Positions 477 through 52,332 of a stretch of DNA of 52,332 nt are shown one piece after another. Position 1 is the first letter of the stretch, and each line of letters begins with the position of its first letter. The notes beneath the pieces are model-generated. The model worked only from the letters and a program-made list of their open reading frames with translations. It had not been told where the DNA came from and searched no databases. Made by a program: the position numbers and the translations under genes. This stretch comes from Bacilli bacterium (GTDB taxonomy: Bacteria > Bacillota_I > Bacilli_A > RFN20 > CAG-826): assembly GCA_016296285.1 (NCBI GenBank), contig JAEDJP010000001.1, positions 1 to 52,332 of the forward strand, in the 5' to 3' direction.

Positions 477-748
477 GATACTCCCCGTTCTATCGCATCA
501 TCGTCGTTGTCTTTTGCTTTGCGATTCTCGGGATTTTCGTCGTCCTTCCCTTTTTGAACGACCCATCCCCTAATTGGGTCGCCCTTTTCGTCTTGCTTGG
601 CATTTGGCTTGCCGCCCTCATTGGGACGATCATCGCGATGGAAATCGCATGGCATAAACGTTACAAAAAAGAAGACCAAGCCAAAGCCCTTGAAACGGTC
701 GAGAATTCCGCCGAGGAGACCGACGCCACGGAGGACGCCCATGAGTGA
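473..748 (+). CDS. small membrane protein, two predicted TM helices and an acidic C-terminal tail (function unknown)
   Basis: 91-aa ORF. Its GTG start overlaps the comEB stop (GTGA) and its stop overlaps the ecfA1 start (ATGAGTGA). It has two hydrophobic stretches (IIVVVFCFAILGIFVVLPFL and WVALFVLLGIWLAALIGTIIAM). I recognise no homology. Confidence 0.5.
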   Translation: MRYSPFYRIIVVVFCFAILGIFVVLPFLNDPSPNWVALFVLLGIWLAALIGTIIAMEIAWHKRYKKEDQAKALETVENSAEETDATEDAHE

Positions 749-1565
749 TCCCATCCTCTCGGTCGAGCACCTTTCTTTTGCTTATGAGCAAGGCAAAGAC
801 GTCCTGAAAGATCTTTCGTTCGCCGTCGAGAAAGGCAGCTATGTCTGCGTCATCGGCCATAACGGCTCCGGGAAATCGACCCTTGCCAAGTGCATCATGG
901 GTTTGAACGGGGCATTCGAAGGGAAAATCCTGTTGTTTGGAGAACCCCTTTCCAGAAAGAACGTCTACGCCCTCCGCTCTCGCATCGGCATCGTCTTCCA
1001 GAACCCGGATAACCAATTCGTGGGCTCCACGGTTTCTGACGATATCGCCTTCGGCTTGGAAAACCGCCAAGTCCCAACCGCGGACATGCCGCGCATCATC
1101 GAGGAATTCGCTCACGAAGTCGGGATGGAGAACTTCCTCGACCACGAACCCCAGATGCTAAGCGGCGGCCAGAAGCAGCGCGTCGCCATCTCCGGCGTTC
1201 TCGCGATGCATCCGGACCTCATTCTTTTCGATGAAGCCACCGCGATGCTCGATCCCAAAGGCAAGCGTGAGATTTCCGCCCTCGTGGACAAGATGCGGCT
1301 CGAGAACCCCTCCCTGACCCTCCTTTCGATCACCCATGATGTCGAGGAAGCCGCGAAGGCCAATCAGGTCATCGTCATCGACAAGGGCAGCATCGTTTTC
1401 GCCGGCACTCCCGCGGAAGTGTTCGCGCACGAAAAAGAACTGGAAGCCATCCACTTAAGCGTTCCCTTTGGGTATGCCCTCGCATCGAGACTTCGCGAAA
1501 AAGGCATCGACGTCCCCCATGAATTGCATGATATAGACGCCTTGGAGGATTTCCTATGCCGATAA
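741..1565 (+). CDS. ecfA1: ECF transporter ATPase subunit EcfA1
   Basis: Walker A GHNGSGKST, signature LSGGQKQR, Walker B LILFDEAT. The ATG at 741 gives the N-terminus MSDPILSVEHLSF. The longer track ORF from 597 is an Arg/Pro-rich read-through of the upstream gene. Gene order is ecfA1-ecfA2-ecfT-truA. Confidence 0.9.
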   Translation: MSDPILSVEHLSFAYEQGKDVLKDLSFAVEKGSYVCVIGHNGSGKSTLAKCIMGLNGAFEGKILLFGEPLSRKNVYALRSRIGIVFQNPDNQFVGSTVSDDIAFGLENRQVPTADMPRIIEEFAHEVGMENFLDHEPQMLSGGQKQRVAISGVLAMHPDLILFDEATAMLDPKGKREISALVDKMRLENPSLTLLSITHDVEEAAKANQVIVIDKGSIVFAGTPAEVFAHEKELEAIHLSVPFGYALASRLREKGIDVPHELHDIDALEDFLCR

Positions 1566-2413
1566 TCTTCCGCGATGTCTGCTTCTCCTATGCCGAGAAG
1601 AATCCGATGGATCATCTCGCTTTGTCCCACCTTTCCTTTTCGATTGAGACGGGCAGTTTCACCGCCCTTGTCGGGAGGACGGGCTGCGGCAAATCCACCC
1701 TCGTCCAGCAAATCAACGCTTTGTTCCACCCCCTTTCCGGCGAGGTGGAGGTCGACGGCTATCTCAATTCGAGCGACAAGAAAAAGAGAACGAAGAAGAA
1801 CAAGGAACTTCGCAAGAAAGTCGGCCTTGTCTTCCAGTTCCCGGAATACCAGCTTTTCGAAGAATCCGTCTTGAAGGATGTCGTTTTCGGCCCCAAGAAT
1901 TTCGGGGCGAGCAAAGAAGAAGCTTTGGCCGCCGCCAAAGAGGCCCTTGCCCTCGTCGGGCTTGATGAATCGTTCTATGAGCGCTCCCCTTTTGAACTCT
2001 CCGGCGGGGAAAAGCGGCGCGTCGCGATCGCGGGCATCCTCGCTTGCCATCCCGAATATTTAATCGTGGATGAACCGACCGCGGGCCTTGACCCCAAAGG
2101 CGCCCAAGAGATGATGGATCTCTTCGAGGATATCCACCGGAAGGGCACGACGATCATCTTGGTCACTCACGACATGAATCTCGTCTTGCGTTACTGCGAC
2201 CGCGTCCTCGTCCTTGAAAACGGCAAACTCGTCGCGGACGATAGGCCAAGCGCCTTCTTCCAGCAAGACATGGACCGTTATTCGCTTGAGACACCTGCCC
2301 TTTATCGCTTCATGCAAGGCCTGAATGCCAAAGGCCTGAAACTGGATCAAGACGGCATTAGCGACGTGGATTCCCTCGCGGAAGCCATCGTGAAAGCGAG
2401 GAAACCGCGATGA
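1556..2413 (+). CDS. ecfA2: ECF transporter ATPase subunit EcfA2
   Basis: Walker A GRTGCGKST, signature LSGGEKRR, Walker B YLIVDEPT. GGAGGA lies 6 nt upstream of the ATG. The gene overlaps the end of ecfA1. Confidence 0.9.
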   Translation: MPIIFRDVCFSYAEKNPMDHLALSHLSFSIETGSFTALVGRTGCGKSTLVQQINALFHPLSGEVEVDGYLNSSDKKKRTKKNKELRKKVGLVFQFPEYQLFEESVLKDVVFGPKNFGASKEEALAAAKEALALVGLDESFYERSPFELSGGEKRRVAIAGILACHPEYLIVDEPTAGLDPKGAQEMMDLFEDIHRKGTTIILVTHDMNLVLRYCDRVLVLENGKLVADDRPSAFFQQDMDRYSLETPALYRFMQGLNAKGLKLDQDGISDVDSLAEAIVKARKPR

Positions 2414-3270
2414 AAGCCTTCGCGCTTGGACGGTATGTCCCCGGCAATTCCTGGCTCCATCGCCTGGACCCCCGATTGAAGATCCTCTCCACCATCCTGC
2501 TCATGGTGTGCGTTTTCCTAAATTACAGTTCCTGGACCATGAGATACGCGATGATGGGGATCATGTTTTTGGTCATTTCGGTGCTTTTGTGGATGACCCG
2601 GATGAGTTTCCGAAGCGTCCTATCGAGCCTTCGCCATCTCTGGTTCATGGTCGTCTTCGTCCTCGTCATTTACATCTTCATGCCCAATAGCGTCCATGTC
2701 CTTCCCGTTGCTTGGGAACTCAATGGCTGGGTCGTCTATTGGGACGCCTTCGCGGAAGCCGGCCGCATCCTTCTGCGCCTCGTCATGATGGTCGAGCTCA
2801 CCTTGATCCTGACCGCCTCCACGAAGCCCCTCGATCTCACCTATGCCCTCGAATGGTATCTCACGCCTCTCAAGGTGTTCCATTTCCCTTCCGCGGAAGT
2901 CGCCATGACGATCTCGATCGCGCTTCGCTTCATCCCGACCCTTCTGGAAGATACCAACCGCGTCATGAAAGCCCAATCTTCCCGCGGCGTCGATTTCGAG
3001 CACGGCAGCCTTTGGAAACGCCTCATGGGCGTCACCTCCTTGGTCATCCCCCTCTTCGTCTCGAGCTTCATGCGTTCGGAAGAACTCGCCAACGCGATGG
3101 AATGCCGCGGCTACGATCCCCGCGCCAAAAGAACGCGCTACCACATCCTCAAATTCCATTGGCGCGACCTCCTTGGCTTCTTCCTCGTCGCCGCCTTGTT
3201 CGCTTTCTGCGTCACCACGGTCGCGATGGGCCTTGATTATTTCGCCCTCGCCGGCTTGGAGGTTCTATGA
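2410..3270 (+). CDS. ecfT: ECF transporter transmembrane (T) component EcfT
   Basis: 286-aa polytopic protein with two x-R-G coupling motifs (KAQSSRGVDF and AMECRGYD). ATGA overlaps with both neighbours. Confidence 0.85.
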   Translation: MKAFALGRYVPGNSWLHRLDPRLKILSTILLMVCVFLNYSSWTMRYAMMGIMFLVISVLLWMTRMSFRSVLSSLRHLWFMVVFVLVIYIFMPNSVHVLPVAWELNGWVVYWDAFAEAGRILLRLVMMVELTLILTASTKPLDLTYALEWYLTPLKVFHFPSAEVAMTISIALRFIPTLLEDTNRVMKAQSSRGVDFEHGSLWKRLMGVTSLVIPLFVSSFMRSEELANAMECRGYDPRAKRTRYHILKFHWRDLLGFFLVAALFAFCVTTVAMGLDYFALAGLEVL

Positions 3271-4022
3271 AATACCTCGGCGTCGTTTCCTATTGCGGGA
3301 ACGCCTATTCGGGATTCGAACGCCAAAAAGATAAAACCACGATTCAGGGGACTCTTGAAAAAGAGCTCTCGTTTTTGCTTGGGACTCCCACGGGAATCAA
3401 GGGAGCCGGCAGGACGGATGGCAAGGTGAACGCGGAAGGTCAAACCTTCTCTTTTGAAGCAAAACCAATCGAGAACGTGGGTCGATTTCTCGATGCGCTG
3501 AACCGCCTTCTTCCTCGCGACATCGAAATGCTTGGCCTCTACCCCGTCCCCGATTCTTTCGATGCGCGTCACTCCTGCTGCGGCAAGCGGTACCGCTATC
3601 GCTTTTCCTATGGCTCGAAGATGCCTTTCGAAACGGCCACGGTCGCCTATATCGGGAATCGGACCGATTTCGATGAGAACGCGTTCCTCGAGGCAATTCG
3701 TCTTTTCGAAGGTGAGCATCGTTTCCACAACTTCACGACCAAGAAGGAAGACAAGGACGATTTCGTTCGTTTCGTGCATATCGAATCCGCTTCCGTTGAT
3801 GCCGAAAGAAGACAAGGAGAAGTGACCTTCGTCGCGAACGGATTCATGACCTACATGGTCCGCTTCCTCGTCGGCGCGGCTTTCAAAGCAGCATTCCATA
3901 CCGTAACGATTCCCTTCCTTAAAGAAAGGCTTGATTCGCCGGAAAGGCGTATCATTTCATTCAAAGCCCCGCCTGAGGGACTCACATTGCTTGAGGTTCT
4001 TTATCATGAAAGTTACCGCTAA
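3267..4022 (+). CDS. truA: tRNA pseudouridine(38-40) synthase TruA
   Basis: TruA-like N-terminus (YCGNAYSGFERQ) and the catalytic-Asp motif GAGRTDGKV. It sits directly after ecfT, as in Bacillus-type operons. Confidence 0.85.
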   Translation: MKYLGVVSYCGNAYSGFERQKDKTTIQGTLEKELSFLLGTPTGIKGAGRTDGKVNAEGQTFSFEAKPIENVGRFLDALNRLLPRDIEMLGLYPVPDSFDARHSCCGKRYRYRFSYGSKMPFETATVAYIGNRTDFDENAFLEAIRLFEGEHRFHNFTTKKEDKDDFVRFVHIESASVDAERRQGEVTFVANGFMTYMVRFLVGAAFKAAFHTVTIPFLKERLDSPERRIISFKAPPEGLTLLEVLYHESYR

Positions 4023-5831: not shown

Positions 5832-7550
5832 ATGGAGACCAAGAATCGTCAAGACGCTTTGAGCCAAATCAAACACAAGAAAAAAGAAGACCGCATTCGC
5901 CAAAAGGCAATCGCGGAACAGCGCGAGCGCGTCTATAACGATATGGTCGCCTACGAGAAGAAACATCGCCGGGAACGCAAGATCGCCCCGAAGGATTCTT
6001 TCATCTCCTTGCAACACATCAACAAGATCTACGATAACCGCGTCCAGGCCGTCTTCGATTTCAACCTCGAGATCAAGCAGCACGAATTCATCGTCTTCGT
6101 CGGCCCTTCCGGCTGCGGCAAGTCGACCACCCTCCGCATGATCGCCGGCCTTGAAAACATCACCGCCGGCGACCTCTACATCGATCGCGTCTATGCTAAC
6201 GACCTCGAGCCAAAGAACCGCGACATCGCGATGGTCTTCCAGTCTTACGCCCTCTATCCCCATAAAAGTGTCGCGGGCAATATGTCCTTCGGCCTCAAGA
6301 TTCGGAAATTCCCGACCAAGGTTCTCGATAAAGAAGGCAAGCCCGTCCTCGCGATCAACAAAGGCTTGATCCGCGACTTGACCAAGGAACGCAAAAACCT
6401 GGCCCTCTTCCGGGAAGACTGCCTCGCGACGAACCCCGAACGGATCCCGCAAATCGACAAGGACCTCGCGGAACTCGACGAGAAGATCGCCTATCTTCAG
6501 GTCACTCCCGTCCAGAAATACGCGATGAAGCATCTCCCGAAAGAAGAGATCGCCTCCCGCGTTCTTTCCGCCGCCGAAATTCTTCAGATCACGGAATACC
6601 TCGACCGCAAGCCCAAAGCCCTCTCGGGTGGCCAATGCCAACGCGTCGCTCTTGGCCGCGCCATCGTCCGCAACGCGAAAGTCTTCCTCATGGACGAGCC
6701 GCTTTCGAACCTTGACGCCAAACTCCGCGTCCAGATGCGCTCGGAGATCATCAAACTCCACAATCGCCTCAACGCCACGACGATCTATGTCACCCATGAC
6801 CAGACGGAAGCCATGACGATGGCCACCCGCATCGTCGTCATGAACAAGGGCTACATTCAACAAATCGGCACCCCTGTCGAGATTTACAATCACCCCGCGA
6901 ACCTCTTTGTCGCGACCTTCATCGGCTCCCCGGCGATGAACCTTTTCCCCTCCACCTTCAAAAACGGGTCCGCCGTGTTCGAGGATGGTCTCGCCATGAA
7001 ACTCGAGGAAGGGTCCGAGGCCAAGGTGCAGGCATTCTATGAAAACGAGCTCGCCTCGTATCAAAAGGAAAAAGAGACGCTTCTTGCAGAGTTCAAGGAG
7101 CGGAACCTCCTCCTCGAGAAGCTGGAGCATCTCCGTTCGCTCCCCGCTTCCTCGAAGACGGATCACGAAATCAAGGAAACCGAATTCGAAATCGAGCAGG
7201 TCACCCGCTCCAACGAACGTCTTTCTTTCCTTGAGGACGCCATCGTCAAATACCAGGAATTCCTCGCGAAGAAAGAATTCGACATCGTCTTCGGCATCCG
7301 GCCGGAGGATATCTACGAAGAAGGAAAGGCCTATACGGATGGAATGTTGAGCGACCCGATCGCCGGCGTCGTGACCGTCCCCGAACTCCTTGGCCACGAA
7401 TATTTTGTCCACATCAATTTCGAGAACCGCGATTTGGTTGCAAAAATCGCGGCGAAACGTTTAATTAATGCGGAGGAAAACATCAACGTCGTGCTCGACC
7501 TCACGCGGGCCCATCTCTTCGATGCCGTCTCCTCCAAGATCATCGAATAA
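5832..7550 (+). CDS. MsmX/MalK/UgpC-type sugar ABC transporter ATPase, enlarged (N-terminal extension plus two insertions)
   Basis: Walker [11 protein letters not shown]-loop [10 protein letters not shown], signature LSGGQCQR, Walker [14 protein letters not shown]-loop YVTHDQ, then the MalK-type C-terminal domain ([10 protein letters not shown] ... FGIRPEDI). GGGAGA lies 6 nt before the ATG at 5832. An alternative GTG start is at 5811. Confidence 0.9.
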
Positions 7551-7553: not shown

Positions 7554-8933
7554 ATGGACAAACTGGGCAATCAATACGTATCGTCCTACCGCAACGAAGG
7601 ATACCTTCCCGTTTCCAAGCGCCTGACCGCCGGATTCGTGGATGTCATGCTTCTCATCATCCTTTCGTTTGGCCTCATGATCGCTTCCTCAGAAATCGCG
7701 ATGGCGGTTCCTTCCTATTCCGAGAAGATCGAGACGATCAATGCTTCCCGCGTTGCCCTTTACGAGTTGCAAGAAGAGACGCTCCTCTATGAGTATCCCG
7801 TCGACCAAGAAGGGAACAAGGATTATTCGACCCCCATTTCCCAAAACAAGGTCTTCGAGAAATATTGCTACGAAAACATCCTATACACCTATTCGCTTTG
7901 CAAAGACGAATGGGATCTCGCCTATACCCTTGGGAACGATGACCCAACCGCCGAAGCGAAACTCGCCGCTTATTCCCCGACGAGTTACGACACGGACCGC
8001 CTTGCCTATTTCTACGTGACTTACGCGAGTGCCCATAACGAAAACGGGAACCTTTTCGCCTTGCAGCAAGGAGAAACCTACATCTCCCATTTCAAGACGA
8101 TTTTGCGCAACGCCTCCGCCGGGGCGGAATGGGATTATTTTGACGGGGATGACCGTTTGCCCGCGCTTTCGATGGCGTTTGCCCATCGCCTTTATCGTTA
8201 TCTCGTCTTCTCCGAAGGCGGCCAGGACGGGCTGAACGCCTACAACTTCCTGATCACCCAATACCAAACCCTTTTCGATGACGCGGGCCAGATTCTTTAT
8301 CGAAGCGACGCCTATCAAGCCCTTTACCAAACCTATTTCTCCGCTTATGGGGAATGTTCGCGCGTCGTTTCCCTTTTCTCGTTCCTTTCCTATGTCGCTT
8401 CGTTCTTGCTTTTGATTCTCTTGCCCTCCCTCCTGTTCAAAAACGGGGAGACCCTTGGCCTGTTCCTTCGCAAGGGCACCCTCTTGCACCAAGATCGTCT
8501 CGAGGTTTCCAAAGGTCAGGTCCTCTTGCGTGACCTTGCCTCGTTTTTCACGTCGTTCCCGACGCTCCTTGTTTCCTGCTATTTCGCCGGCGGCTTCAAT
8601 TCCGGGTGGATGTATCCCCTCTTTTCGATCGGCGGGGCAGGCGTTTCCCTTTTCAACCTCACCCTCATCAGCTTGATTTTCCCCATCGTGAATCTCGCGA
8701 TGGCTTTGATCCGCAAGGACAAGCGCGGCTTCACCGAACTCTTGAGCAACACGATTCTCATCGACCGTTCCTATTACGTCGATCATCGCCTTGAAGCAGA
8801 AGATGAGAAAGAAAAAGAAGAAGAAGCGAAAACCCCGACCCCCGTCTCCGCGGAAGTCCCGTATTTCGATTCATCTTGCTTTGAAAACACGGAACGGCCG
8901 AAGCCGTTCGACGATGATTCGGGCTCTCATTGA
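7554..8933 (+). CDS. RDD-family polytopic membrane protein with a large loop between TM1 and TM2
   Basis: RDD-like signature (KRLTAGFVDVML ... KNGETLGLFLRKGTLL ... D). About 230 aa separate the first TM from the TM cluster. Homologous along its whole length to the ORF at 50126-51388. It starts 4 nt after the ATPase stop. Confidence 0.6.
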   Translation: MDKLGNQYVSSYRNEGYLPVSKRLTAGFVDVMLLIILSFGLMIASSEIAMAVPSYSEKIETINASRVALYELQEETLLYEYPVDQEGNKDYSTPISQNKVFEKYCYENILYTYSLCKDEWDLAYTLGNDDPTAEAKLAAYSPTSYDTDRLAYFYVTYASAHNENGNLFALQQGETYISHFKTILRNASAGAEWDYFDGDDRLPALSMAFAHRLYRYLVFSEGGQDGLNAYNFLITQYQTLFDDAGQILYRSDAYQALYQTYFSAYGECSRVVSLFSFLSYVASFLLLILLPSLLFKNGETLGLFLRKGTLLHQDRLEVSKGQVLLRDLASFFTSFPTLLVSCYFAGGFNSGWMYPLFSIGGAGVSLFNLTLISLIFPIVNLAMALIRKDKRGFTELLSNTILIDRSYYVDHRLEAEDEKEKEEEAKTPTPVSAEVPYFDSSCFENTERPKPFDDDSGSH

Positions 8934-9787
8934 TCCAGGTCAACGAGATTCTTTTGCTTGTAAAGCGTCGGGGGCATCCCGAAGTACCGCTTGAAGCGGC
9001 GCGCGAAATAGAACTGATTGGAATATCCGATCGCCTCGGCGATCTGGTTGATGGTCAACGTCCGGTGATTGAGCAATTCAATCGCCTTTTTCATGCGGAC
9101 GTCATCGACGAATTGGATGGGGGTGATCCCGATTTGCTCCTTGAAAAGACGCGTGAGGTAGGAAGGGGAAAACCCGAATCGTTCCGCGACCGATTGGATC
9201 GATAAGGCGGGGTCGTTGTAATGGATCGTGAGATAACGGCTGATGATTTTGGTCGTTTCTTCTTTCTTGGACGAAATCTGCATCTGCTCCTTCGGGTGAT
9301 TTTGGAGCAAGAAGGCGAGAAGGCGATAAACGTATCCCGTCACAAGGAGGCCTTCCGCGCTTTCCGTCGCCGCGTTGTCCGCCTCGACCATTTCCTTCAA
9401 GAGCTTTTCGACGGGATGGCCCTCGGCGTCGGAAAAAATGAAATTGTCGGGGCGCATGGTCGTGCCATCCAAGACCGTCCGCATGGCCGTGCCGCTGATC
9501 TCAATCCAGATGTAGGACCACGGGTCGTGTTTCACGGGGCTATAGGTCGCGTTCGAATGGGGAGGCAGGATAAAAAAGTTATTAGCCGAGACATGGCAAG
9601 AATGGCCCTCAAGACGAATGGTTCCTTGCCCGGAAAGGACGTAATGGATGATATAACATGCCTTGTCGGATTGGATGGGCGCTTTGTTGGTTCGACAGCG
9701 TTCATACCCAACAACGAGAGGCGTAATCGCGGAATCGTTGCGCACTGAAATGTAGCTGTAGTATACATCACGGTCAAAGACGCCCAT
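8927..9787 (-). CDS. AraC-family transcriptional regulator (cupin sensor domain plus C-terminal HTH)
   Basis: C-terminal double HTH (YLTRLFKEQIGITPIQF ... INQIAEAIGYSNQFYFARRFKRYFGMPP). AGGAGG lies upstream of the start. The 3' end overlaps the convergent RDD gene by 7 nt. Confidence 0.85.
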   Translation of the reverse strand: MGVFDRDVYYSYISVRNDSAITPLVVGYERCRTNKAPIQSDKACYIIHYVLSGQGTIRLEGHSCHVSANNFFILPPHSNATYSPVKHDPWSYIWIEISGTAMRTVLDGTTMRPDNFIFSDAEGHPVEKLLKEMVEADNAATESAEGLLVTGYVYRLLAFLLQNHPKEQMQISSKKEETTKIISRYLTIHYNDPALSIQSVAERFGFSPSYLTRLFKEQIGITPIQFVDDVRMKKAIELLNHRTLTINQIAEAIGYSNQFYFARRFKRYFGMPPTLYKQKNLVDLDQ

Positions 9788-9894: not shown

Positions 9895-10887
9895 ATGAAA
9901 GCGCTTCCAATAAGTATGGCTAATATAAGCACAAAGTTGAGTGAACGCGATTTGATTCGCAAGCCCAAGGCGCGGAGCCTTTGGTCCAAATGGGGAATCA
10001 CGCTCTTTTTGATGGCCTTGCCGACAATCGTCTACGTCTTCATCTTCCATTACCTTCCTTTGGAAGGCCTCATCATTTCCTTCAAGGATTACAACTCGTT
10101 TCAGGGCATCTGGGGATCCCCTTGGACCGAGATGGGAGGTTTCAAGCATTTCCACACCTTCGTGACCGCCCCGAACTTCTGGACGCTCGTGAAGAACACC
10201 CTCGTCCTTTCGGTCCTTAGCATCGTTTTCAACTCCACGCTCCCCATTCTTTACGCTTTGTTCCTCAATGAAGTCCGTTTCAAATGGGCCAAGAAGACGG
10301 TGCAGATCATCATGTATGCCCCGTATTTCATCTCGACGGTCGTCATGGTCGGCATCCTCTTCGTCCTCTTCCGCGCGGATACCGGCTCGATCACCAAGAT
10401 CCTCGTGACCCTCGGCTTTGAGGGATCGTCCGCGATGAGCAATCCGAAAGCTTTCGTCGCCATCTACATCATCTCGGGCCTCTGGCAGGGCCTTGGCTGG
10501 TGGTCCATCGTCTACATGGGCTCCCTCGCGAACGTGGACCCGAACCTCCACGATGCCGCGAAAATCGATGGGGCGGGTCGCCTGCGTCGCATCTTCTCGG
10601 TCAATTTCCCCTCCATCCTTCCGCTTGCCATCATCATGCTCATCATGTCGATCGGCAATATCCTGAACGTCGGTTTCGAAAAGGTCTATTTGATGTATAC
10701 CCCGGGCAATTCCGTCGCCTCGGAGATCATCTCGACCTATGTCTATCGCATCTCGTTCCCGGATTACGGGTTGCCCCAATTCTCCTACGCGACCGCGATC
10801 GGCCTCTTCAACTCCGTCATCAACATCATCATCCTCGTGACGGCCAACTTCATCTCGAAAAAGGTTAGCGACAACTCGCTTTGGTAA
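9895..10887 (+). CDS. sugar ABC transporter permease, LplB/YtcP-like
   Basis: 330-aa polytopic protein with an LplB-type N-terminus (LFLMALPTIVYVFIFHYLPLEGLIISFKDY) and an EAA-loop region (DAAKIDGAGRLRRIFSVNFP). Confidence 0.85.
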   Translation: MKALPISMANISTKLSERDLIRKPKARSLWSKWGITLFLMALPTIVYVFIFHYLPLEGLIISFKDYNSFQGIWGSPWTEMGGFKHFHTFVTAPNFWTLVKNTLVLSVLSIVFNSTLPILYALFLNEVRFKWAKKTVQIIMYAPYFISTVVMVGILFVLFRADTGSITKILVTLGFEGSSAMSNPKAFVAIYIISGLWQGLGWWSIVYMGSLANVDPNLHDAAKIDGAGRLRRIFSVNFPSILPLAIIMLIMSIGNILNVGFEKVYLMYTPGNSVASEIISTYVYRISFPDYGLPQFSYATAIGLFNSVINIIILVTANFISKKVSDNSLW

Positions 10888-10892
10888 GGATT

Positions 10893-11750
10893 ATGAAACG
10901 CTGGAATCGTGAAAAAGTCTTTGATGTCGTCATCACCGTCATCATGCTCCTCGTCGCCTTGGCTTTCCTTTTGCCGCTTTTGAATGTCCTCGCCTGCTCG
11001 TTCTCGAGCCCCGAGAAGGTCGTCGCGGGCGAAGTCGGCCTTTTCCCCGTCGAATTCACCGTGCGTGGATATCAAGAGGTATTCGCGAACGACTCCTTGA
11101 TGCGCGGGTTCCTGAACACCCTGTTCTACACCTTCCTCGGTACCGTCATCCAGGTGACCCTCCAGATGCTTTGCGCCTACCCCCTCAGCCGCCCCGATTT
11201 CAAAGGCCGGAAATTCCTCAACATCTTCCTGACCCTCACGATGTTCATCAGCGGCGGCATGATCCCGACCTACCTCCTCATCTCGAACCTCGGGATGCTC
11301 GACACGATTTGGGCGATCATCATCCCGGGCTGCGTCTCCGTCTTCAACATCATCGTCATCCGCACCTACATGCAGAACTCGATTCCCGCGGAACTCCAAG
11401 AGGCGGCGCGCATCGACGGGTGCGGGGATTTCCAGATTTTCCTGCGCGTGGTCTTGCCCCTTTGCAGGCCGATCCTCTTCGTCATGGTCCTCTATGCCAT
11501 CGTTGGGTATTGGAACAACTACTTCAACGCCTTGCTTTACATCCAATCCACGGACCTTTACCCCTTGCAGAGGGTTCTCCAAGACATGCTCGTTACCAAC
11601 AGCGGTTCTCTTGGCGCCGGGGACCCGAACCTGCAGGAACAACTCAAATACGTCACCATTATCGTCAGCTCATTGCCGCTTCTTGTCATATACCCGTTCT
11701 TCCAGAAGTACTTCGAGAAGGGCGTCGTCATGGGCGGCGTGAAAGGATAG
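10893..11750 (+). CDS. sugar ABC transporter permease, LplC-like
   Basis: Polytopic protein with the EAA loop EAARIDGCGDFQIFLRVVLP. The ATG at 10893 follows the upstream stop. An alternative TTG at 10881 overlaps that stop. Confidence 0.85.
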   Translation: MKRWNREKVFDVVITVIMLLVALAFLLPLLNVLACSFSSPEKVVAGEVGLFPVEFTVRGYQEVFANDSLMRGFLNTLFYTFLGTVIQVTLQMLCAYPLSRPDFKGRKFLNIFLTLTMFISGGMIPTYLLISNLGMLDTIWAIIIPGCVSVFNIIVIRTYMQNSIPAELQEAARIDGCGDFQIFLRVVLPLCRPILFVMVLYAIVGYWNNYFNALLYIQSTDLYPLQRVLQDMLVTNSGSLGAGDPNLQEQLKYVTIIVSSLPLLVIYPFFQKYFEKGVVMGGVKG

Positions 11751-11762
11751 GAGGTTTCGAGA

Positions 11763-13511
11763 ATGAAAAAACCAATCAACAAGGGATTCGCATTCCTAGG
11801 CATGGCCATTGCCCTCGCAGCTTGCGGTGGTGGCGGAGCCGGTTCCTACGACCCCGATAATTTTCTGCCAGAAGGCACGGCGGAAAATCCCTATCAAATC
11901 GTGAAGGAACCCATCACGATCAAGATTTTCGCGCCCCATAGCAGCGGCAATCCGGAATACAAAGACCTCAAGATGTTCAAGCATCTTTCGAAGGTCACGA
12001 ATCTCAAATTCGAATTCACGACCCCCGACACGAGCGCTTACGCGAATCGCCGTTCCGCCGTGTGGGAAGACCGCAATTACAAACCCGACCTGTTCTTGTT
12101 CAACAACCCGATCGCCGAGCAAATCCAGTACGCGGAGAACAAATTCAACGCCCTGACCCCCTTCAACGATCCCGAGTATTCCGATGGCACGGGGAATGTC
12201 GGTTCCCTCATCGACAACTACATGCCGAATTACAAGGCCCTTTTGGAGAACAACTTCGGCATCGATTCGGAAAAGGAAAGCGCGCGGGAAACCGCGACCA
12301 TCAGCGATGGCAAGATGTATTGCTCCATCTCCGCGAAAGACGTCGCCCGCGACCTCACGTACAAGATGTTTATCAACAACGTCTGGATCAAAAACGTGTA
12401 TACGTCCTACCCGAATTCCTACTGCGCGACCCACGGCATCGACGATGCGTCCAAGATCCTCTTGATCGATGATTACGTCGGCGTCCTCACGGATTTCAAC
12501 GCGTTTGACGCGAACAACAACGGCAAGACGGGCGATGAAATCGCCGTCTCCTCGAAAGCCTTCGAGTACCTTCGCAATTTCATCCTCCAGGCCTATGGGT
12601 ACGTCTCTTACTCCTGCGAGCTTGAAAACGACGGATCCCACTTTACCTATGTCCCGAAGACCAATGCCTACCGCAACTACCTCAAGACCGCCTCTGGCAT
12701 GTGGTCCGCGGGTCTCATGGACCGCAGCACCCCGGAAAACAAGACCGACTCCTTGATGGCGACCAACGGCAAGCGCCTTGGCTCGTTCGTCGCGGCCGCC
12801 CCCTATATCATTACCTCCCAGCAAAACGACCCGAACAACCTCAAAGAAGACGGGACGCCCTATCGTTATGATGAGGAATACGTCACGGTGGCCCCCTTGC
12901 TTTCCTCTTCCTATGACGGTCCGCGCATGCAGCTTGGCTTCGGCTTCTTCAAGCCAGACGGCGCTTGCATCCCCACCGCCTCGAACTACAAGAGGGAAGT
13001 CGCCCGCCTCATCGACATCATGTATGGCCCCCTCGGCACCCAGCTCATCTCCTATGGCGTCGAGAACGAGGACTGGACTTGGGACGATGAAGCCAAAACG
13101 AGCTGGACCTTCCACGTTCCCGATACCTGGACGGGCAACCAGGAGGAATACCGCGGCACGATCACCCCGAACGTCGGCAGTGCTTCCGCCCTCTATTGGT
13201 CCAACGAATTCGTCGGCAAGATGAACGACGAGGTCATCACGCGCCTCAACGCCCAATCCGAGACTTACATCCCCTATCTCAAGACCCCCGAGCCCGCGAA
13301 ATACAAATTCACGAGCAAGGAATACGAGACGATTTCCACGATCAAGGCATCCCTTGATAACCAGATCACCTATTACGAGGCTTCCTTCATCACCGGCCAG
13401 CTCGATCCGAATTCCGATTCCGATTGGAACGACTACCTGAACACGATCGAGCGCTTCCGCGCCGGTGAGCTCGAAGGCCTCTACAACACGATGCTCGCGA
13501 GGTATCGCTGA
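11763..13511 (+). CDS. large extracellular solute-binding lipoprotein (LplA/LipO-like) of the ABC transporter
   Basis: Signal peptide with lipobox A-L-A-A-C-GGGG. Its 582-aa size and position after the LplB/C-type permeases fit this family. GGAGG lies upstream of the start. Confidence 0.8.
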   Translation: MKKPINKGFAFLGMAIALAACGGGGAGSYDPDNFLPEGTAENPYQIVKEPITIKIFAPHSSGNPEYKDLKMFKHLSKVTNLKFEFTTPDTSAYANRRSAVWEDRNYKPDLFLFNNPIAEQIQYAENKFNALTPFNDPEYSDGTGNVGSLIDNYMPNYKALLENNFGIDSEKESARETATISDGKMYCSISAKDVARDLTYKMFINNVWIKNVYTSYPNSYCATHGIDDASKILLIDDYVGVLTDFNAFDANNNGKTGDEIAVSSKAFEYLRNFILQAYGYVSYSCELENDGSHFTYVPKTNAYRNYLKTASGMWSAGLMDRSTPENKTDSLMATNGKRLGSFVAAAPYIITSQQNDPNNLKEDGTPYRYDEEYVTVAPLLSSSYDGPRMQLGFGFFKPDGACIPTASNYKREVARLIDIMYGPLGTQLISYGVENEDWTWDDEAKTSWTFHVPDTWTGNQEEYRGTITPNVGSASALYWSNEFVGKMNDEVITRLNAQSETYIPYLKTPEPAKYKFTSKEYETISTIKASLDNQITYYEASFITGQLDPNSDSDWNDYLNTIERFRAGELEGLYNTMLARYR

Positions 13512-25494: not shown

Positions 25495-25548
25495 GCAACA
25501 ATAATAACAAAACGTTGTTTCAATGAAAACAAAAGAAGGAAAAATGCT

Positions 25549-25577: not shown

Positions 25578-25632
25578 ACCCCCGGCGTTTCCAAAAGAAA
25601 CACGTCAAAAATCGAAAAGAAAGGACAATCCT

Positions 25633-26076: not shown

Positions 26077-26090
26077 GGAGTAAATGATTC

Positions 26091-29082: not shown

Positions 29083-29084
29083 TT

Positions 29085-43909: not shown

Positions 43910-46186
43910 TTACTTGGCCAAAGACCAAGAGGCGATGGTATCACCGGAGTTTACGTCAAAGGCTAGAACCTTATCCAACTCACAACTAAGCTCAATATCT
44001 TCGTGAGCCTTGACCAACGTTCCGGTGGAGATCTTGGCAATCATATCAACGTTGTTGTAATTGGCATGGACGAGAAGTTCGCTGCCAAGCAATTCAACGA
44101 CATCACTGTTGACCGTGAAACCACTGGACTTCTTATCGGAATTGAATTCACGGGCAAGGTGGATGTGCTCCGGACGGATGCCGATGCGGACATCGTGTTT
44201 GCCCTGCAAGGCAGCCTCATACTTTCTTTCTAGTTCGGTCAAGACCAACCAAAGGTTGTTGGTGAGAACGACATTGGAATCCTTGACGTGGATGGAAGAC
44301 TTATAGCCTTTGACGGCAGCTTTGGCCTTGCCATGTCTCTTGGTGTAGAAGAGAACCGTTTCCTTTTCGGACTTCTTGCCCTTGGAGAAGGCCGTGGTGT
44401 TGTGAAGGATGGACAGTTCCTTGGTCGTGATATCCATGATGTTGAGAAGGAGCGGTTTGGCAGCCTTGAGTCTTTCTTCCAAGGAACGTTCTTTCTGTCC
44501 ATCCGTAGCAGGAGCAAAGCAGGCAACCAAGGCATCGCGATCCTTGTCATCGATGGTTTCGATGACCGCTTTGAGTTCTTCGACCTTGGCGTTGATTTGT
44601 TCTTCCATCATGGCCTTGATTTCGCCATGGATTTCATCCAAAGACTTGGAGCCTTCCTCCTTGACGAGAGCATGAACCTTCTTTTCGCCCTCCGTAAGCG
44701 GAACGAGCTTTTCTTCGCCTTGGCCTTTGCTAAGAGCCGCCCGGAGACGATCGGAATAGTGGAGGAGATTTCTTTCCTCGGCCAGGAGGCGAAGAATCTC
44801 GTCGTGGAGGAACAAGCCATGCATCTTCTTGACCGGATTCTTGGCTAAGAAGCCTCGGGTCTCTTCCAATTTCTGGTTGTAGAAGGCATCGTGAGTCGTC
44901 TTGAATTCTGCCCCCATATCCATGACGAAACCATCGTCTAAGGTCAACTTGCCGTCTTCATAAGTGCCTTCGAAGATATTCATGGCAGGAGAGCCAATGA
45001 AGGTAGCGACGAAGATGTTGTTCGGACGGGAGTAGATGACTTCCGGTTCCCCAATCTGCTGGCACCAGCCCTTGGACATGACGGCAATACGGGTTGCCAT
45101 GGTCATCGCTTCGGTCTGGTCGTGCGTGACGTAAATGGTGGTCGCCCCGATTCGCTCGTGCAATCGGACGATTTCGGAACGCATCTGAACTCTCAACTTG
45201 GCGTCGAGGTTGGACAAAGGCTCATCCATTAAGAAGACCTTGGCGTTTCTGACAATGGCTCTTCCTAAGGCGACACGCTGCATCTGACCACCGGAGAGTT
45301 CTTTCGGGCGTCTGTCGAGGTAAGGGCCAAGGTCCAAAATCTTGGCCGCTTCGAAGACCTTCTGACGGATCTCTTCCTTGGTGAGTTTGACCTTCTGATG
45401 AAGGGGTTTTTCGCCCTGATAGACAACGCCATCTTTCTTGATGGTGAAGCCCTTGGATTCATAGTTCTGCTTTTCCGCAGCAATCATGCTGTCCAAAGTA
45501 GCGTCGATCTCCTCTTTCTTGGAATCGAACAATGTCTTGAATTCAAGCTGATACTGGGCAAGATTATCCGAATCACCGAAAGCTTTTCTGGCTAAGGCAA
45601 GCAAATCTTTGTATGACAAGATGAGCTTGGCAGTGATTTCCTGGATCTTGAGCTTGGTGGAAACATAGACGGCCAAAGAAGCGTAATTGAGTTTCTTGTC
45701 CAAGGATTCGATCATGCCTTCCAGCAACCGCTCAGGCTGTTCCTTGACCGCATCGAATTCCATTTTGGCCTGCATGGAGAGGACTTTGACGATCTTATCG
45801 TACTTGCGGGCTTTGAGCGGGAACGCGATGTTATCGTAGACCGTCATCTGCGGATACAAAGCGTAGGACTGGAAAACCATGGAAATATCACGGTCCTTGG
45901 GAGGAATGTAGTTGGAGAGGACTTTATCGATGTGGAGATAACCGGAGGAAATATCTTCCAAACCGGCGATCATTCTAAGGGTCGTGGACTTGCCGCAGCC
46001 AGAAGGACCGACCAAGACGATGAACTCATGCTGCTTGATATCGATGTTGAAATCGTAGACGGCCTGAATGCCGTTGGGATAAATCTTATTGACGTCTTTG
46101 AGACAGACGAAGGATTGAATGGATTCGTTGCGGATAATACCGCCATTCTTCTTCAGTTCTTCTTTGAGATTCACATTTTCTTCCAT
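43910..46186 (-). CDS. MsmX/MalK/UgpC-type sugar ABC transporter ATPase, greatly enlarged (758 aa)
   Basis: Walker [11 protein letters not shown]-loop [10 protein letters not shown], signature LSGGQMQR, Walker [14 protein letters not shown]-loop YVTHDQ, and MalK C-domain ends ([10 protein letters not shown] ... IGIRPEHIHL). It has K/E-rich insertions of about 140 aa and about 240 aa. AGGAGG lies upstream of the start. Confidence 0.9.
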   Translation of the reverse strand: MEENVNLKEELKKNGGIIRNESIQSFVCLKDVNKIYPNGIQAVYDFNIDIKQHEFIVLVGPSGCGKSTTLRMIAGLEDISSGYLHIDKVLSNYIPPKDRDISMVFQSYALYPQMTVYDNIAFPLKARKYDKIVKVLSMQAKMEFDAVKEQPERLLEGMIESLDKKLNYASLAVYVSTKLKIQEITAKLILSYKDLLALARKAFGDSDNLAQYQLEFKTLFDSKKEEIDATLDSMIAAEKQNYESKGFTIKKDGVVYQGEKPLHQKVKLTKEEIRQKVFEAAKILDLGPYLDRRPKELSGGQMQRVALGRAIVRNAKVFLMDEPLSNLDAKLRVQMRSEIVRLHERIGATTIYVTHDQTEAMTMATRIAVMSKGWCQQIGEPEVIYSRPNNIFVATFIGSPAMNIFEGTYEDGKLTLDDGFVMDMGAEFKTTHDAFYNQKLEETRGFLAKNPVKKMHGLFLHDEILRLLAEERNLLHYSDRLRAALSKGQGEEKLVPLTEGEKKVHALVKEEGSKSLDEIHGEIKAMMEEQINAKVEELKAVIETIDDKDRDALVACFAPATDGQKERSLEERLKAAKPLLLNIMDITTKELSILHNTTAFSKGKKSEKETVLFYTKRHGKAKAAVKGYKSSIHVKDSNVVLTNNLWLVLTELERKYEAALQGKHDVRIGIRPEHIHLAREFNSDKKSSGFTVNSDVVELLGSELLVHANYNNVDMIAKISTGTLVKAHEDIELSCELDKVLAFDVNSGDTIASWSLAK

Positions 46187-49969: not shown

Positions 49970-49985
49970 TTGTAAGTGCTTACAA
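49970..49985. promoter_or_regulatory. 16-bp perfect palindrome, cre/LacI-type operator candidate
   Basis: TTGTAAG-TG-CTTACAA. It matches the cre consensus TGTAAGCGCTTACA except that the central CG is TG. It lies 29 nt upstream of the SBP start codon. Confidence 0.5.
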
Positions 49986-50052
49986 ATAAAATATCTAAGT
50001 TACTTTGTAGATGGAATCATTAAAATTAATGCCTTCCCATTGCGGATAATGG

Positions 50053-50124
50053 AAAAAGGGGCTGTTTATTGGTTGATTAACGTGTCCTTGACACGGGGTC
50101 CACATTATTCAACAGCCCCTTTTT
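50053..50124 (-). terminator. nested inverted repeat between the RDD gene and the SBP gene (terminator/attenuator candidate)
   Basis: A perfect 14-bp inverted repeat, AAAAAGGGGCTGTT (50053-50066) / AACAGCCCCTTTTT (50111-50124), encloses a 44-nt loop. The loop contains a second perfect hairpin, CGTGTC-ctt-GACACG (50081-50095). The outer arm starts 1 nt after the RDD stop codon, and T-runs are present on both strands. Confidence 0.5.
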
Positions 50125-50125
50125 G

Positions 50126-51388
50126 TTACTTTTTGGACTGCTCCGTATCCGGGATGAGACCAATCGATTTTTCATCCATCACCTTTGTTTTAAAAGACAT
50201 TTCAAGCAAGGTCTGCGCTTGAGCGGTAAATAGGGTGGAAATGGAGTTGATGACAGTCAGGATGAATGCGCCGATCAAGATGACGGCAAGGGAGACGTTT
50301 CCGATAAAGGGAAGCATCATTCCATCGAACACCCCATTGAAAGGAGGCATCATGTAGGCAACCGTGATTCCGGCAAGATAGGGGATGAACAGAAGGAGAG
50401 AATGGACGAAGGTAAGATACCATTTTGGCTCTTCGTCTTCGGTGGTGATGACGCCAAGTCCGAGGATGAGCTTACCGAGAGTTCTTTCATTGCGGAAGAG
50501 GAACTTCGGAAGAAGATTCAGAAATAGATAGGAGAGGAAAAAGGAAAGAATCAAGGCGATGTTAAGACATTTGGCTTGAGCCCCGATAGCCTCACGATAC
50601 GCAAGATAATGGGTGGAGTAGTAGGGTTCGTTCTGGATCAGGGAGTTTTCGGCATCGGTCAGCATCGTGGAATAGGCGTTGTAGAAATTGTTGAAGTAAG
50701 CCTTGCCGGTTTCATAGATAGCGTTCATCTCTTCGGCCGTGTTATCGGTCATATAGCAGAAGAGTGCTCTAGAAACATCGGTATGAAGGGCAGGGAGCTC
50801 GGTGGGATGACCGTTTTCGTCCATCAAAACCGCATCGAAGCGGAACATACCCGCGGGGAAGGAAGACTGGTAGAGAGAATTGACATAAGCGAGGGGCGTC
50901 GAGGTAAAACTGAGAATGGGAGTGCCGGAAACTTCGGCTTCCTGAGGAACGTAGACGGTGTAGAAGTGAGCGATCGAGTCGTTTTCCGGAGAAGCCTTTC
51001 CATATCTTGTCGTTTCACTGCCGTCTTCGATGACAAAGTCAGGATACTGGGCGTTACCGAACTTCTCATAGGACCATAGGATGGCTCTGTTGATGTTTTC
51101 GATAACGATGATTTCATCGGACTTTCTGGTGGTTTTCTCTTCATCGACGAAGGAAACCAATCCGGAAGCTTCCGCATAATGGTTGTAATAGACAATCTCC
51201 TCTTCCACTTTGGCCGTTGCCTGCTGATAGGAGGCAGTCCCCCTGGCTATCGGAGCAGCCCCAAGGAAGAGAAGACTCGCACCAACTAAGACAATGGAAA
51301 AATCGATGAAGAAAGACGCAAAACGCTTCCCCGGCTTTACCGGGAAAGCGTTGCTGAGATCATAGGTATGTTCTTTGAATAATCCCAT
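50126..51388 (-). CDS. RDD-family polytopic membrane protein with a large loop (paralog of 7554-8933)
   Basis: KRFASFFIDFSIVLV ... RNERTLGKLILGLGVIT RDD-type pattern, with a loop of about 250 aa after TM1. Colinear similarity to 7554-8933: AHFYTVYVP versus AYFYVTYAS, LPALHTDVSRALFCYM versus LPALSMAFAHRLYRYL, and a conserved TM2 region. Confidence 0.6.
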   Translation of the reverse strand: MGLFKEHTYDLSNAFPVKPGKRFASFFIDFSIVLVGASLLFLGAAPIARGTASYQQATAKVEEEIVYYNHYAEASGLVSFVDEEKTTRKSDEIIVIENINRAILWSYEKFGNAQYPDFVIEDGSETTRYGKASPENDSIAHFYTVYVPQEAEVSGTPILSFTSTPLAYVNSLYQSSFPAGMFRFDAVLMDENGHPTELPALHTDVSRALFCYMTDNTAEEMNAIYETGKAYFNNFYNAYSTMLTDAENSLIQNEPYYSTHYLAYREAIGAQAKCLNIALILSFFLSYLFLNLLPKFLFRNERTLGKLILGLGVITTEDEEPKWYLTFVHSLLLFIPYLAGITVAYMMPPFNGVFDGMMLPFIGNVSLAVILIGAFILTVINSISTLFTAQAQTLLEMSFKTKVMDEKSIGLIPDTEQSKK

Positions 51389-51414: not shown

Positions 51415-52332
51415 TTAGGCCGCGTCCTCAGTCCAGGTGGAGATGTAGACAGGTTCCGTGATGGCGGCGATTTCGGCATCAATAGCAGCAGCATCGGTAT
51501 TGACCTTGTAGGCGGAGAAGGTGACATCGGAGTTGAATTCGAAGAAACCGACCTGAGAAGGGACAGCCGTGTAATGATCACCATCGAGGACACCAAAGAG
51601 GTCTTCAAGGGTCGTCATGGAAGCAGCATACTGGCCATTGACGAAGAAGTGGAAGTCGAAGCCCTTACGAATCATCTTAAGGGTGATGGAATCTTCAATC
51701 TGAATGGCAGGATCAACATTGTAGAGAGCATCCTGATGTCTGGCAGTGGTATCTGGGACACCGGGGTTCCAGGCCCAATTGGCGCCGTTTTGAACTTCGC
51801 AGACACCAATCTTATCCCATTCGAGACTTTCGTGGCAGTTTTCAATGTTCAAGAAGTAATAGAGACTGTTGGACGGAGAATCCGGAGTGTGCTCAGCGGT
51901 GGAAGCGAACATACCGATCTTCGGCCAGATTTCGTGAGAAAGGGTGGAATGATAGGTCATGGTCGTTTCGACAGAGAACTCAACGGCATCAACGCCCTTG
52001 ATGAATAAATTAGCAGTCAAGGAACCAGAGGTTCTGACATAGTAATCTTCATTTTCAGGAAGTTCCTTGGTGAAGTCATCCTGAGAAGAGATGCCGGAAA
52101 GAGTGTGATCGAAGAAGGTATCCTTGACGGTGACGTGGAAGGAGCAGCTCTTGGTGGAGTCAACCTTGGAAGTAACGGTGACGGTAGCGCTGCCAACACC
52201 GACAGCCTTCATGGTCTTGTTGATAATTTGGACGACTTCCGGATGATCGGAATCATACGTGCACTGCTTATCCTTGGTCGTCAAGGAACCATTGCCTTCG
52301 ATCGTGTAGTAGTTCTGAAGCAACTGAACATC
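51415..52332 (-). CDS. 5'-truncated CDS: Big_2 Ig-like domain plus concanavalin/LamG-like domain protein
   Basis: The frame is open to the right window edge; the track M at 52323 is an internal TTG. Big_2-like segment: KAVGVGSATVTVTSKVDSTKSCSFHVTV. Lectin-like C-terminal part: KGFDFHFFVNGQYAASM, SQVGFFEFNSDVTFSAYKV. Confidence 0.5.
   Translation of the reverse strand, partial: DVQLLQNYYTIEGNGSLTTKDKQCTYDSDHPEVVQIINKTMKAVGVGSATVTVTSKVDSTKSCSFHVTVKDTFFDHTLSGISSQDDFTKELPENEDYYVRTSGSLTANLFIKGVDAVEFSVETTMTYHSTLSHEIWPKIGMFASTAEHTPDSPSNSLYYFLNIENCHESLEWDKIGVCEVQNGANWAWNPGVPDTTARHQDALYNVDPAIQIEDSITLKMIRKGFDFHFFVNGQYAASMTTLEDLFGVLDGDHYTAVPSQVGFFEFNSDVTFSAYKVNTDAAAIDAEIAAITEPVYISTWTEDAA

Follow-up and report, generated by a model that had tools for sequence, protein, structure and literature searches.

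Large-loop RDD-family membrane proteins encoded beside enlarged MalK-type ATPases are candidate accessory partners of sugar importers in uncultured gut Bacilli

A stretch of 52,332 nucleotides from a Bacilli bacterium (GenBank assembly GCA_016296285.1, contig JAEDJP010000001.1; this whole stretch is called the window) carries two genes for large-loop membrane proteins of the RDD family, each near an ATP-binding cassette (ABC) sugar-import system with an enlarged MalK-type ATPase. Both genes had been proposed in a first-pass annotation and are present as claimed: RDD1 (459 amino acids (aa); 7554..8933, + strand) and RDD2 (420 aa; 50126..51388, - strand) were each examined by an open reading frame check, Pfam, full-length alignment and an AlphaFold2 model. 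The two proteins align end to end with 22% identity (E=5e-14), which bears out their suggested homology, and both exceed the cut-off of the Pfam RDD model (PF06271, 24.1 bits), RDD1 with 28.0 bits and RDD2 with 37.9 bits. In RDD1 the Pfam match comprises residues 279-394, the C-terminal transmembrane (TM) part (TM2-TM4) only, because an insert splits the RDD domain.

Hydropathy and AlphaFold2 models built on homologue alignments indicate four TM helices in each protein (predicted local distance difference test score (pLDDT) 85.5 and predicted template-modelling score (pTM) 0.70 for RDD1; 89.6 and 0.76 for RDD2). The elements follow a common order: a short N-terminus leads into TM1 and the all-helical domain (about 220 residues); next come a long helix whose end forms TM2 and a loop containing a small beta-hairpin; TM3 and TM4 are joined by a short loop, and a beta-strand and a disordered tail complete the chain. 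The all-helical insert between TM1 and TM2 covers residues 47-270 of RDD1 and 47-266 of RDD2. A large loop after the first TM helix had been correctly noticed, but its length is about 220 aa by hydropathy and AlphaFold2, not the 230-250 aa first given. Neither protein therefore shows the compact RDD domain with short loops; the insert of about 220 aa is conserved, and we regard this as a variant architecture and not as grounds for excluding the proteins from the family.

The conserved positions are distributed along the whole of RDD1. TM1 (residues 26-46 by hydropathy; 7629..7691, + strand) is preceded by a conserved K/R at position 23 and contains a near-invariant intramembrane Asp30. In the RDD triad, R23 supplies the 'R' and D30 the first of the two 'D' positions; both are at least 90% conserved in A1, and each member of the triad R23/D30/D404 is at least 90% conserved across the RDD1 and RDD2 clades. 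The large loop (residues 47-270; 7692..8363, + strand) is all-helical in the AlphaFold2 model, with pLDDT mostly above 90, and is acidic and predicted from its charge to be extracellular; it holds the family-wide motif N-D-x-L-A-Y-F-Y with a near-invariant D148. TM2, a predicted cytoplasmic loop with G-E-T-L-G, TM3, an outer loop and TM4 follow at 8364..8711 (+ strand), as delimited by the Pfam RDD match and segment conservation, and the TM3-TM4 outer loop is short, with a conserved G-G-x-N-S-G-W-M-Y-P-L-F. The predicted cytoplasmic C-terminal region (8712..8930, + strand) includes Asp404, the second 'D' of the triad, then a variable acidic linker and a tail with the motif P-Y-F-D-S-S-x-F-x-N-T-E-R (residues 436-448; 8859..8897, + strand). 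Column conservation within the RDD1 clade is 0.72 in this motif versus 0.43 in the preceding linker, and the motif is found in the divergent relatives L022 and L027 and partially in L029. Because it follows a poorly conserved acidic linker, the tail motif looks like a short linear motif.

The gene upstream of RDD1, ATPase1 (5832..7550, + strand), encodes an MsmX/MalK/UgpC-type ABC nucleotide-binding protein by Pfam, its match to MsmX, and NCBIfam, and ATPase2 (43910..46186, - strand; Pfam, NCBIfam) encodes a MalK/UgpC-type nucleotide-binding protein of 758 aa. ATPase1 had been described as a protein of 573 aa; the gene stands, but its length is 572 aa from the best start, the ATG at 5832, which is preferred since it gives the same length as in the orthologues. 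ATPase1 orthologues are 565-582 aa long and those of ATPase2 734-797 aa. Both proteins contain ABC_tran, OB_MalK and TOBE_2 domains by Pfam, and the NCBIfam model of the UgpC subfamily, which has its cut-off at 432, gives 442.8 bits for ATPase1 and, just short of that value, 413.2 bits for ATPase2. The nearest solved relative is Bacillus subtilis MsmX (6yir, 373 aa; E=1.6e-114), with which ATPase1 aligns in three blocks. These are separated by insert 1 in the helical subdomain (about aa 161-232) and by insert 2 in the regulatory domain (about aa 383-483); a basic N-terminal extension of about 52-58 aa is added in front. In ATPase2, insert 1 is larger and insert 2 much larger. Neither ATPase has the canonical MalK length (about 355-406 aa) without internal inserts.

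At locus 1, RDD1 directly adjoins ATPase1 as proposed, although its start lies 3 nucleotides (nt) after the ATPase1 stop and not 4 nt. An AraC-family regulator gene (8927..9787, - strand; Pfam HTH_18, HTH_AraC and AraC_binding) converges on RDD1 and diverges from the permease genes, a position that is kept in 19 of the 20 GTDB loci. It is followed by genes for an LplB-type permease (9895-10887, + strand), an LplC-type permease (10881-11750, + strand; both Pfam BPD_transp_1) and SBP1 (11763..13511, + strand), a lipoprotein solute-binding protein (SBP) of 582 aa with the lipobox L-A-A-C, which has a conserved position and no Pfam match. Locus 2 is encoded on the - strand and contains, beyond RDD2, the lipoprotein SBP2 (48307-49941), a MalF-type permease (47168-48265), a MalG-type permease (46236-47186) and ATPase2. 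Each locus holds a complete CUT1 importer set, with two BPD_transp_1 permeases and an SBP lipoprotein nearby, and lipoboxes are present in both SBP1 and SBP2; every binding protein and surface enzyme in the window is lipoprotein-anchored.

To place this pairing in a wider context, we surveyed the gene neighbourhoods of about 40 members of the family to which RDD1 and RDD2 belong, a distinct and undescribed RDD subfamily that we named RDD-L. All loci were found through RDD homology and never through the ATPase, and an alignment of sequences sharing the N-D-x-L-A-Y-F-Y motif contributed three loci from a metagenome collection. Every RDD-L locus with adequate flanks contains a gene for a MalK-type nucleotide-binding domain (NBD) protein within about 6 kb, and in most cases the two genes abut. 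The pairing of RDD and enlarged MalK-type genes that had been noticed in the window thus extends well beyond it, in at least seven arrangements, between clades less than 30% identical and on contigs of 24%-57% G+C.

The most frequent arrangement, type A, reads NBD(565-590 aa)-RDD-AraC(reverse)-LplB-LplC-SBP and occurs at window locus 1 and on about 23 further contigs, including 20 GTDB species representatives; wherever an RDD1-type contig reaches far enough upstream (about 24 contigs), the ATPase gene immediately precedes the RDD gene, and one locus, L005, is without the AraC gene. Type B, lipoprotein-RDD-SBP-MalF-MalG-(GH2)-NBD(734-797 aa), is found on seven contigs (window locus 2, L006-L009, L036 and L037). 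Type C (L028, L029) consists of NBD(627-632 aa)-GH36-RDD-AraC(reverse). In type D (L033), two transmembrane-domain (TMD) permease genes open the order TMD-TMD-GH43-CBM9 protein-GH43-RDD-PucR_HTH-CBM4_9 protein-NBD(559 aa), and type E (L038) reads TMD-TMD-GH172-...-SIS-PfkB-NBD(468 aa)-RDD. Types F and G include a second RDD gene, designated RDD': SIR2_2-RDD-RDD'-NBD(526-535 aa)-TMD-TMD-SBP in L030, L040 and the first system of L041, and RDD-RDD'-NBD(480 aa)-TMD-TMD-MG185-like lipoprotein-SNase in the second system of L041. Where the NBD and RDD genes are adjacent, the median distance from NBD stop to RDD start is 8 nt, with a range of -4 to 47 nt (23 contigs). Neighbouring importers each have their own RDD-L, as at loci 1 and 2 of the window and in both systems of L041.

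RDD' is a shorter RDD-L paralogue of 315-332 aa with a smaller loop, recognized by the family profile with E values of about 1e-19 to 1e-22. Its genes (L030:10939-11922; L040:11175-12167; L041:3161-4159 and 11217-12164) abut or overlap the long RDD gene. These pairs suggest that RDD-L may act as a dimer, heteromeric where RDD' is present and perhaps homomeric in the window systems.

Could this linkage be no more than gene order inherited within one lineage, devoid of functional meaning? Type A synteny is near-identical in the 20 species representatives, which are close relatives, and all RDD-L members come from related uncultured gut Bacilli. We nevertheless consider such an explanation quite improbable, since the linkage persists through the rearranged architectures, divergent clades and wide G+C range described above, and the flanking genes differ from locus to locus (ecf-truA-YebC, GH65/GH28 with AAA_14, tuf-SIR2, PfkB-SIS). 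From the varied upstream neighbours and the spread in G+C, the linkage appears to have survived repeated rearrangement. By a rough estimate in which about 0.3-1% of the genes in a genome encode MalK-type NBD proteins, a random gene would have one within three genes about 2-5% of the time, and seven independent arrangements would be very unlikely by chance.

The same survey bears on the idea that RDD-L, by itself or paired with RDD', serves as an alternative TMD and forms a separate transporter with the orphan ATPase. A homology search of the two 21-kb type C loci, L028 and L029, detected no permease genes, and types F and G have a pair of RDD genes in front of the NBD gene. However, canonical permease pairs accompany the system in types A, B, D, E, F and G, together with an SBP, and inspection by eye of the RDD-L cytoplasmic loop revealed no EAA-type coupling motif. 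MsmX-type ATPases are also known to serve several distant permease pairs (PMC5730181, PMC7658222). A separate RDD-based transporter therefore seems very improbable.

To estimate the extent of the subfamily, a profile of the RDD1 and RDD2 clades was searched against 1.84 billion representatives. It gave 1445 matches at E<=1e-3, of which 425 reached E<=1e-10 and 135 reached E<=1e-30; nearly all of the best 150 matches listed are full-length (380-460 aa). The 137 aligned family sequences fall into at least 45 groups at 30% identity, and the sole positions with at least 90% conservation across these representatives are D30 in TM1 and D148 in N-D-x-L-A-Y-F-Y. A repeat search with the 137-sequence profile returned mostly the RDD1 clade again and added only P0182. 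The named closest homologues of RDD1 are annotated as 'Candidatus Enteromonas', to a relative of which the window is assigned, and related contigs as uncultured Mollicutes, Bacilli and Candidatus Onthovivens; ten diverse representatives that were looked up are metagenome assemblies only.

The label 'undescribed' given to this module in the first-pass annotation also holds. No NCBIfam model matches RDD-L, and Pfam gives only the generic RDD family. A profile search of the PDB with RDD-L found nothing below E=0.24, and Foldseek searches of the PDB with the full-length RDD1 and RDD2 models gave best E values of 0.5 and 0.13, with TM-scores of at most 0.22. A literature search found no paper linking RDD to ABC transporters, MalK, MsmX, MsmK or MsiK, and a search of the literature on RF39 and the MG185-188 operon found nothing relevant.

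The NBD proteins linked to RDD-L all measure 468-797 aa, compared with 355-406 aa for solved MalK-type relatives, but the extensions that enlarge them are not the same. ATPase1-type proteins carry the N-terminal extension and both inserts. ATPase2-type proteins have no N-terminal extension, insert 1, and a very large insert 2. The ATPases of L033 and L038 possess the N-terminal extension and insert 2 but not insert 1, and those of L040 and L041 have insert 1 only, with an acidic C-tail in some. Residues 1-52 of ATPase1 (5832-5990) are strongly basic and helical, have no Pfam match and include a motif that ends in x-x-E-R-K; similar motifs are seen in the extension-bearing ATPases of types A, C, D and E. 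As a separate observation, a gene at L003:748-2532 (the same contig as L020:2739-4523), directly downstream of a GH65 phosphorylase gene, encodes a 594-aa fusion of a HAD/beta-phosphoglucomutase-like enzyme with a MalK-type ATPase. Such enzyme-ABC ATPase fusions are unusual; the MalK part is normal-sized, is the sole MalK-type domain without inserts in the sampled loci, and has no RDD-L of its own.

Membrane topology was assessed with the positive-inside rule, by mapping the 137 family representatives onto the segments of RDD1. The N-terminus (2.3 K+R per 10 residues), the TM2-TM3 loop (1.9) and the first 20 residues after TM4 (1.7) are predicted to lie inside, and the large loop (0.86, with a net charge of about -15) and the TM3-TM4 loop (0.19) outside. 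Both termini of RDD-L are thus predicted to be cytoplasmic and the large loop external. The first-pass annotation had proposed that the large RDD loop interacts with the inserts of the enlarged ATPases, and had itself named a loop and an ATPase on opposite sides of the membrane as a refutation. The charge distribution places the loop outside the cell and the ATPase is inside, so the loop could not touch the cytoplasmic inserts; in addition, the loop is acidic and bounded by two clear TM helices, insert 1 is missing from the L033/L038 ATPases, and insert 2 from the L040/L041 ATPases. Only the co-occurrence of a large loop with enlarged ATPases speaks for this mechanism, and we find it scarcely credible.

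Judging from gene context, and with slightly better than even confidence, we propose that RDD-L works as an accessory membrane protein dedicated to the CUT1-type (MalFGK2/MsmX-like) sugar importers of wall-less, RF39/Mollicutes-like Bacilli of the gut. The suggestion in the first-pass annotation that RDD is a fourth transporter component is, in this general form, probably the best explanation of the conserved neighbourhoods. RDD-L would be made in step with the ATPase and would join the transporter complex, where it may contact the ATPase and/or the permease pair through its cytoplasmic face. This face amounts to at least about 100 residues, made up of the N-terminal stretch (about 22), the 33-residue G-E-T-L-G loop between TM2 and TM3, and the C-terminal region; the first two and the C-terminal tail with its motif are the candidate contact sites, and direct contact with the NBD is suggested because of the operon adjacency and coupling. 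The outward domain would act where the lipoprotein SBPs and surface glycanases are also placed, for instance as a platform for docking or retention; in type B the Big_2 surface lipoprotein, whose gene lies immediately upstream, would share that side. The likely effect would be on importer assembly, stabilization or regulation rather than on substrate translocation itself. A more specific version, in which RDD-L (with RDD' where present) is a stoichiometric extra subunit whose tail and loop dock on the ATPase extensions and whose outward domain recruits or gates the SBP, is tentative, and we hold it to be somewhat unlikely.

Complementary cytoplasmic features may also speak for the accessory role. 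The RDD-L partners of ATPases with a basic N-terminal extension (net +5 to +10) mostly have tails that are longer and for the most part acidic (net +1 to -17), and several of these tails carry F-D-S-S-x-F-x-N-x-E-R; ATPase2-type proteins, without the N-terminal extension, are paired with the short-tailed RDD2.

Several considerations weigh against an accessory role in the transporter. All support for it is gene context in uncultured organisms, and the survey, being conditioned on RDD-L, covered enlarged MalK-type ATPases and CUT1 systems as neighbours of RDD-L genes. The correlation between tails and N-terminal extensions is suggestive, a lead that rests on only two or three independent groups. 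The ATPase extensions are heterogeneous and none is universal, which argues against one conserved interface between inserts and RDD; the enlarged ATPase holds as a property of the class, and enlargement may be partly a habit of the lineage. The mean distance among RDD1 sequences is 0.96, versus 0.41 for the ATPase and 0.21-0.26 for the permeases, so that RDD1 evolves as fast as AraC, which is unusual for a core subunit. A mirror-tree comparison of RDD1 with the ATPase, AraC, permeases and SBP (16 taxa) gave correlations that were all 0.96-0.98, with no specific co-evolution signal, and the partial correlations reflect only shared fast rates. Finally, a terminator-like hairpin separates RDD2 from the transporter operon of locus 2.

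This hairpin (50050..50125, - strand) directly follows the RDD2 stop codon and has a 14-bp stem with A-run/U-run flanks; its folding energy is -29.8 kcal/mol (z=-5.52), and none of 200 shuffles folds equally well. It was not picked up by a simple terminator scan, its loop being long. RDD2 had been placed immediately upstream of the SBP-permease-permease-ATPase operon: the upstream position is right, but a gap of 184 nt containing the hairpin separates it from SBP2. Standing between the lipoprotein-RDD2 pair and the operon of SBP2, the structure has the appearance of a terminator or attenuator. The same gap contains a perfect 16-nt palindrome, TTGTAAGCACTTACAA (49970..49985, - strand), read from the sequence upstream of the SBP2 ribosome-binding site, which is a candidate LacI/cre-type operator; a LacI-family gene lies a few kb upstream in loci orthologous to locus 2. 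Given the hairpin and the operator-like site, RDD2 and the lipoprotein gene upstream of it may form a transcription unit of their own.

The fast evolution of RDD1 and the RDD2 hairpin keep alive the possibility that RDD-L is co-regulated with the importer but stands outside it, either as an outward sensor that signals to the neighbouring transcription factor or to the regulatory domain of the ATPase, or with an independent membrane function, for instance ion or proton movement, required during sugar import. With its helical external domain between TM1 and TM2, RDD-L is built much like bacterial membrane sensors; a gene for a regulator almost always lies alongside (AraC for types A and C, PucR-HTH for D, HTH_3 for E, LacI for B), and the evolutionary rate of RDD1 matches that of the AraC regulator. 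The Asp in TM1 is invariant, and a Halobacillus andaensis protein, a distant member of the RDD family, was reported as an Na+(Li+,K+)/H+ antiporter (PMC5996927). However, regulator genes are common in sugar-utilization loci, and their family and orientation vary by arrangement, whereas the NBD linkage is constant. Translational coupling to the NBD gene, with short gaps and some overlaps, is more typical of subunits of one complex, and deletion or over-expression of the B. subtilis RDD protein SppI left salt and alkaline-pH resistance unchanged (PMC7568657). On these grounds we regard a role outside the transporter as unlikely, although it deserves serious weight.

The accessory-partner interpretation finds its best functional analogy in SppI (YteJ) itself, which forms a membrane complex with its operon neighbour SppA and regulates or inhibits it via a cytoplasmic C-terminal part (PMC7568657). 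In both cases an RDD membrane protein is encoded together with a membrane machine, one that SppI binds and that RDD-L is proposed to bind. SppI differs in having no large external domain and in its partner, a protease instead of an ABC importer; no SppA-type gene was found in window loci 1 and 2 or in the related survey loci. Compared with the Pfam RDD family, PF06271, RDD-L shares the R-D-D triad, the TM core and an above-threshold score but carries the helical domain of about 220 aa in its first external loop and occurs in the context of sugar import.

The importers themselves resemble canonical CUT1 systems (MalFGK2; B. subtilis MsmX with YtcQP-YteP) in having an SBP lipoprotein, two BPD_transp_1 permeases and an MalK/MsmX-type NBD. 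Locus 1 is similar to the MsmX-dependent pectin-oligosaccharide systems (PMC5730181). The systems differ from the canonical ones in that the RDD-linked NBDs carry lineage-specific extensions, and the literature search found no report of an RDD-type subunit in a canonical CUT1 importer. Accessory partners of other ABC systems are well known, among them LptC with LptB2FG, MlaB/MlaD with MlaFE, EIIA-Glc and MalT with MalK, and BceS with BceAB. Like the role proposed for RDD-L, these involve an extra protein that attaches to the TMD or NBD and adjusts ATPase activity or the hand-over of substrate, but they have no detectable sequence or fold relationship to RDD-L (Pfam gives only RDD, and Foldseek no PDB match).

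A further comparison is with the MG185-MG189-type operon of Mycoplasma genitalium, which encodes a lipoprotein, an SNase nuclease, an enlarged ATPase and two permeases. In the second system of L041 there are likewise an enlarged NBD, a pair of permeases, an MG185-like lipoprotein and an SNase, and this gene set, compared by way of a weak Pfam match, would tie the RDD-L-linked systems to the enlarged-ATPase importers of Mollicutes. The L041 operon differs in that it begins with RDD-RDD', and the M. genitalium operon is not known to contain an RDD gene. The lipoprotein, which has a weak match to PF27319 (MG185_MG260), and the 585-aa SNase-domain nuclease that follows it are encoded at L041:16126-19355.

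If RDD-L does act with the importers, the consequences would be of several kinds. A binding protein, two permeases and two ATPase subunits are taken to make up a full type I sugar importer, a view that would have to be revised for an entire lineage of uncultured but abundant bacteria of the gut (RF39 and relatives) living on plant glycans. The large, widespread and functionally obscure RDD family would gain a concrete, testable role, its first mechanistic one, and the large extensions on Mollicutes-like sugar-importer ATPases would have an explanation to test. Heterologous reconstitution of these importers may fail without co-expression of RDD-L. The outward domain, a confidently predicted fold without a solved relative, is a target for structural work.

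The surroundings of the two loci hold further features. On the + strand, ecfA1-ecfA2-ecfT-truA-PHP-YebC precede ATPase1 and RDD1. The order ecfA1-ecfA2-ecfT-truA (597-4022) and then an enlarged ATPase resembles the order MG179-182 and then MG187 in M. genitalium, and may be synteny that dates back to an ancestor in common with Mollicutes. RDD1 and the AraC gene share 7 nt at their 3' ends (8927-8933), and most type A loci keep such a tail-to-tail overlap or have the two genes nearly abutting. Locus 1 also holds lipoprotein beta-helix/Big_2 enzymes, a GH127/GH88-like protein and rhamnosidases, and looks like a pectin or rhamnogalacturonan utilization locus. At locus 2, ATPase2 is followed by genes for GH43, GH43, an SASA esterase and GH43. 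Directly upstream of RDD2 lies the gene for the Big_2 surface lipoprotein (51415..52332, - strand), which is cut by the window end; its orthologues are 375-402 aa long, the gene is kept 8-27 nt upstream of RDD2 orthologues, and the lipoprotein's C-terminal domain matches no Pfam model.

Directly upstream of the RDD-RDD' pairs of type F is a gene for an SIR2_2 protein of 433-434 aa (L040:8697-10001; L041:659-1963; L030:8229-9530), which overlaps the RDD start by 1 nt in L040 and L041; the arrangement recurs in RDD-L clades less than 30% identical. The SIR2_2 protein has a weak ThsA-like PADLOC match (E about 1e-6). We considered a part for RDD-L in SIR2-based anti-phage defence and rejected it, as no SIR2 gene lies near RDD1 or RDD2, and RDD1, RDD2 and the L040 RDD and RDD' proteins gave no PADLOC hit.

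The difference in G+C between the two loci that had been pointed out is real but modest, about 0.51-0.56 against 0.48-0.50. The region between them (24910-36000) contains an AbiEi-like regulator gene (24910-26031, - strand), tRNA-Ile/Val/Thr genes (28959-29249), a tRNA-Leu gene (32090-32172), HxlR and MgsA/AAA+ genes, and genes for two AAA_14/DUF4143 ATPases (32656-33987, - strand; 34502-35968, + strand). The G+C content drops from about 0.55 to about 0.49 near 28 kb, a position that adjoins the tRNA cluster and may be a junction of segments with different histories.

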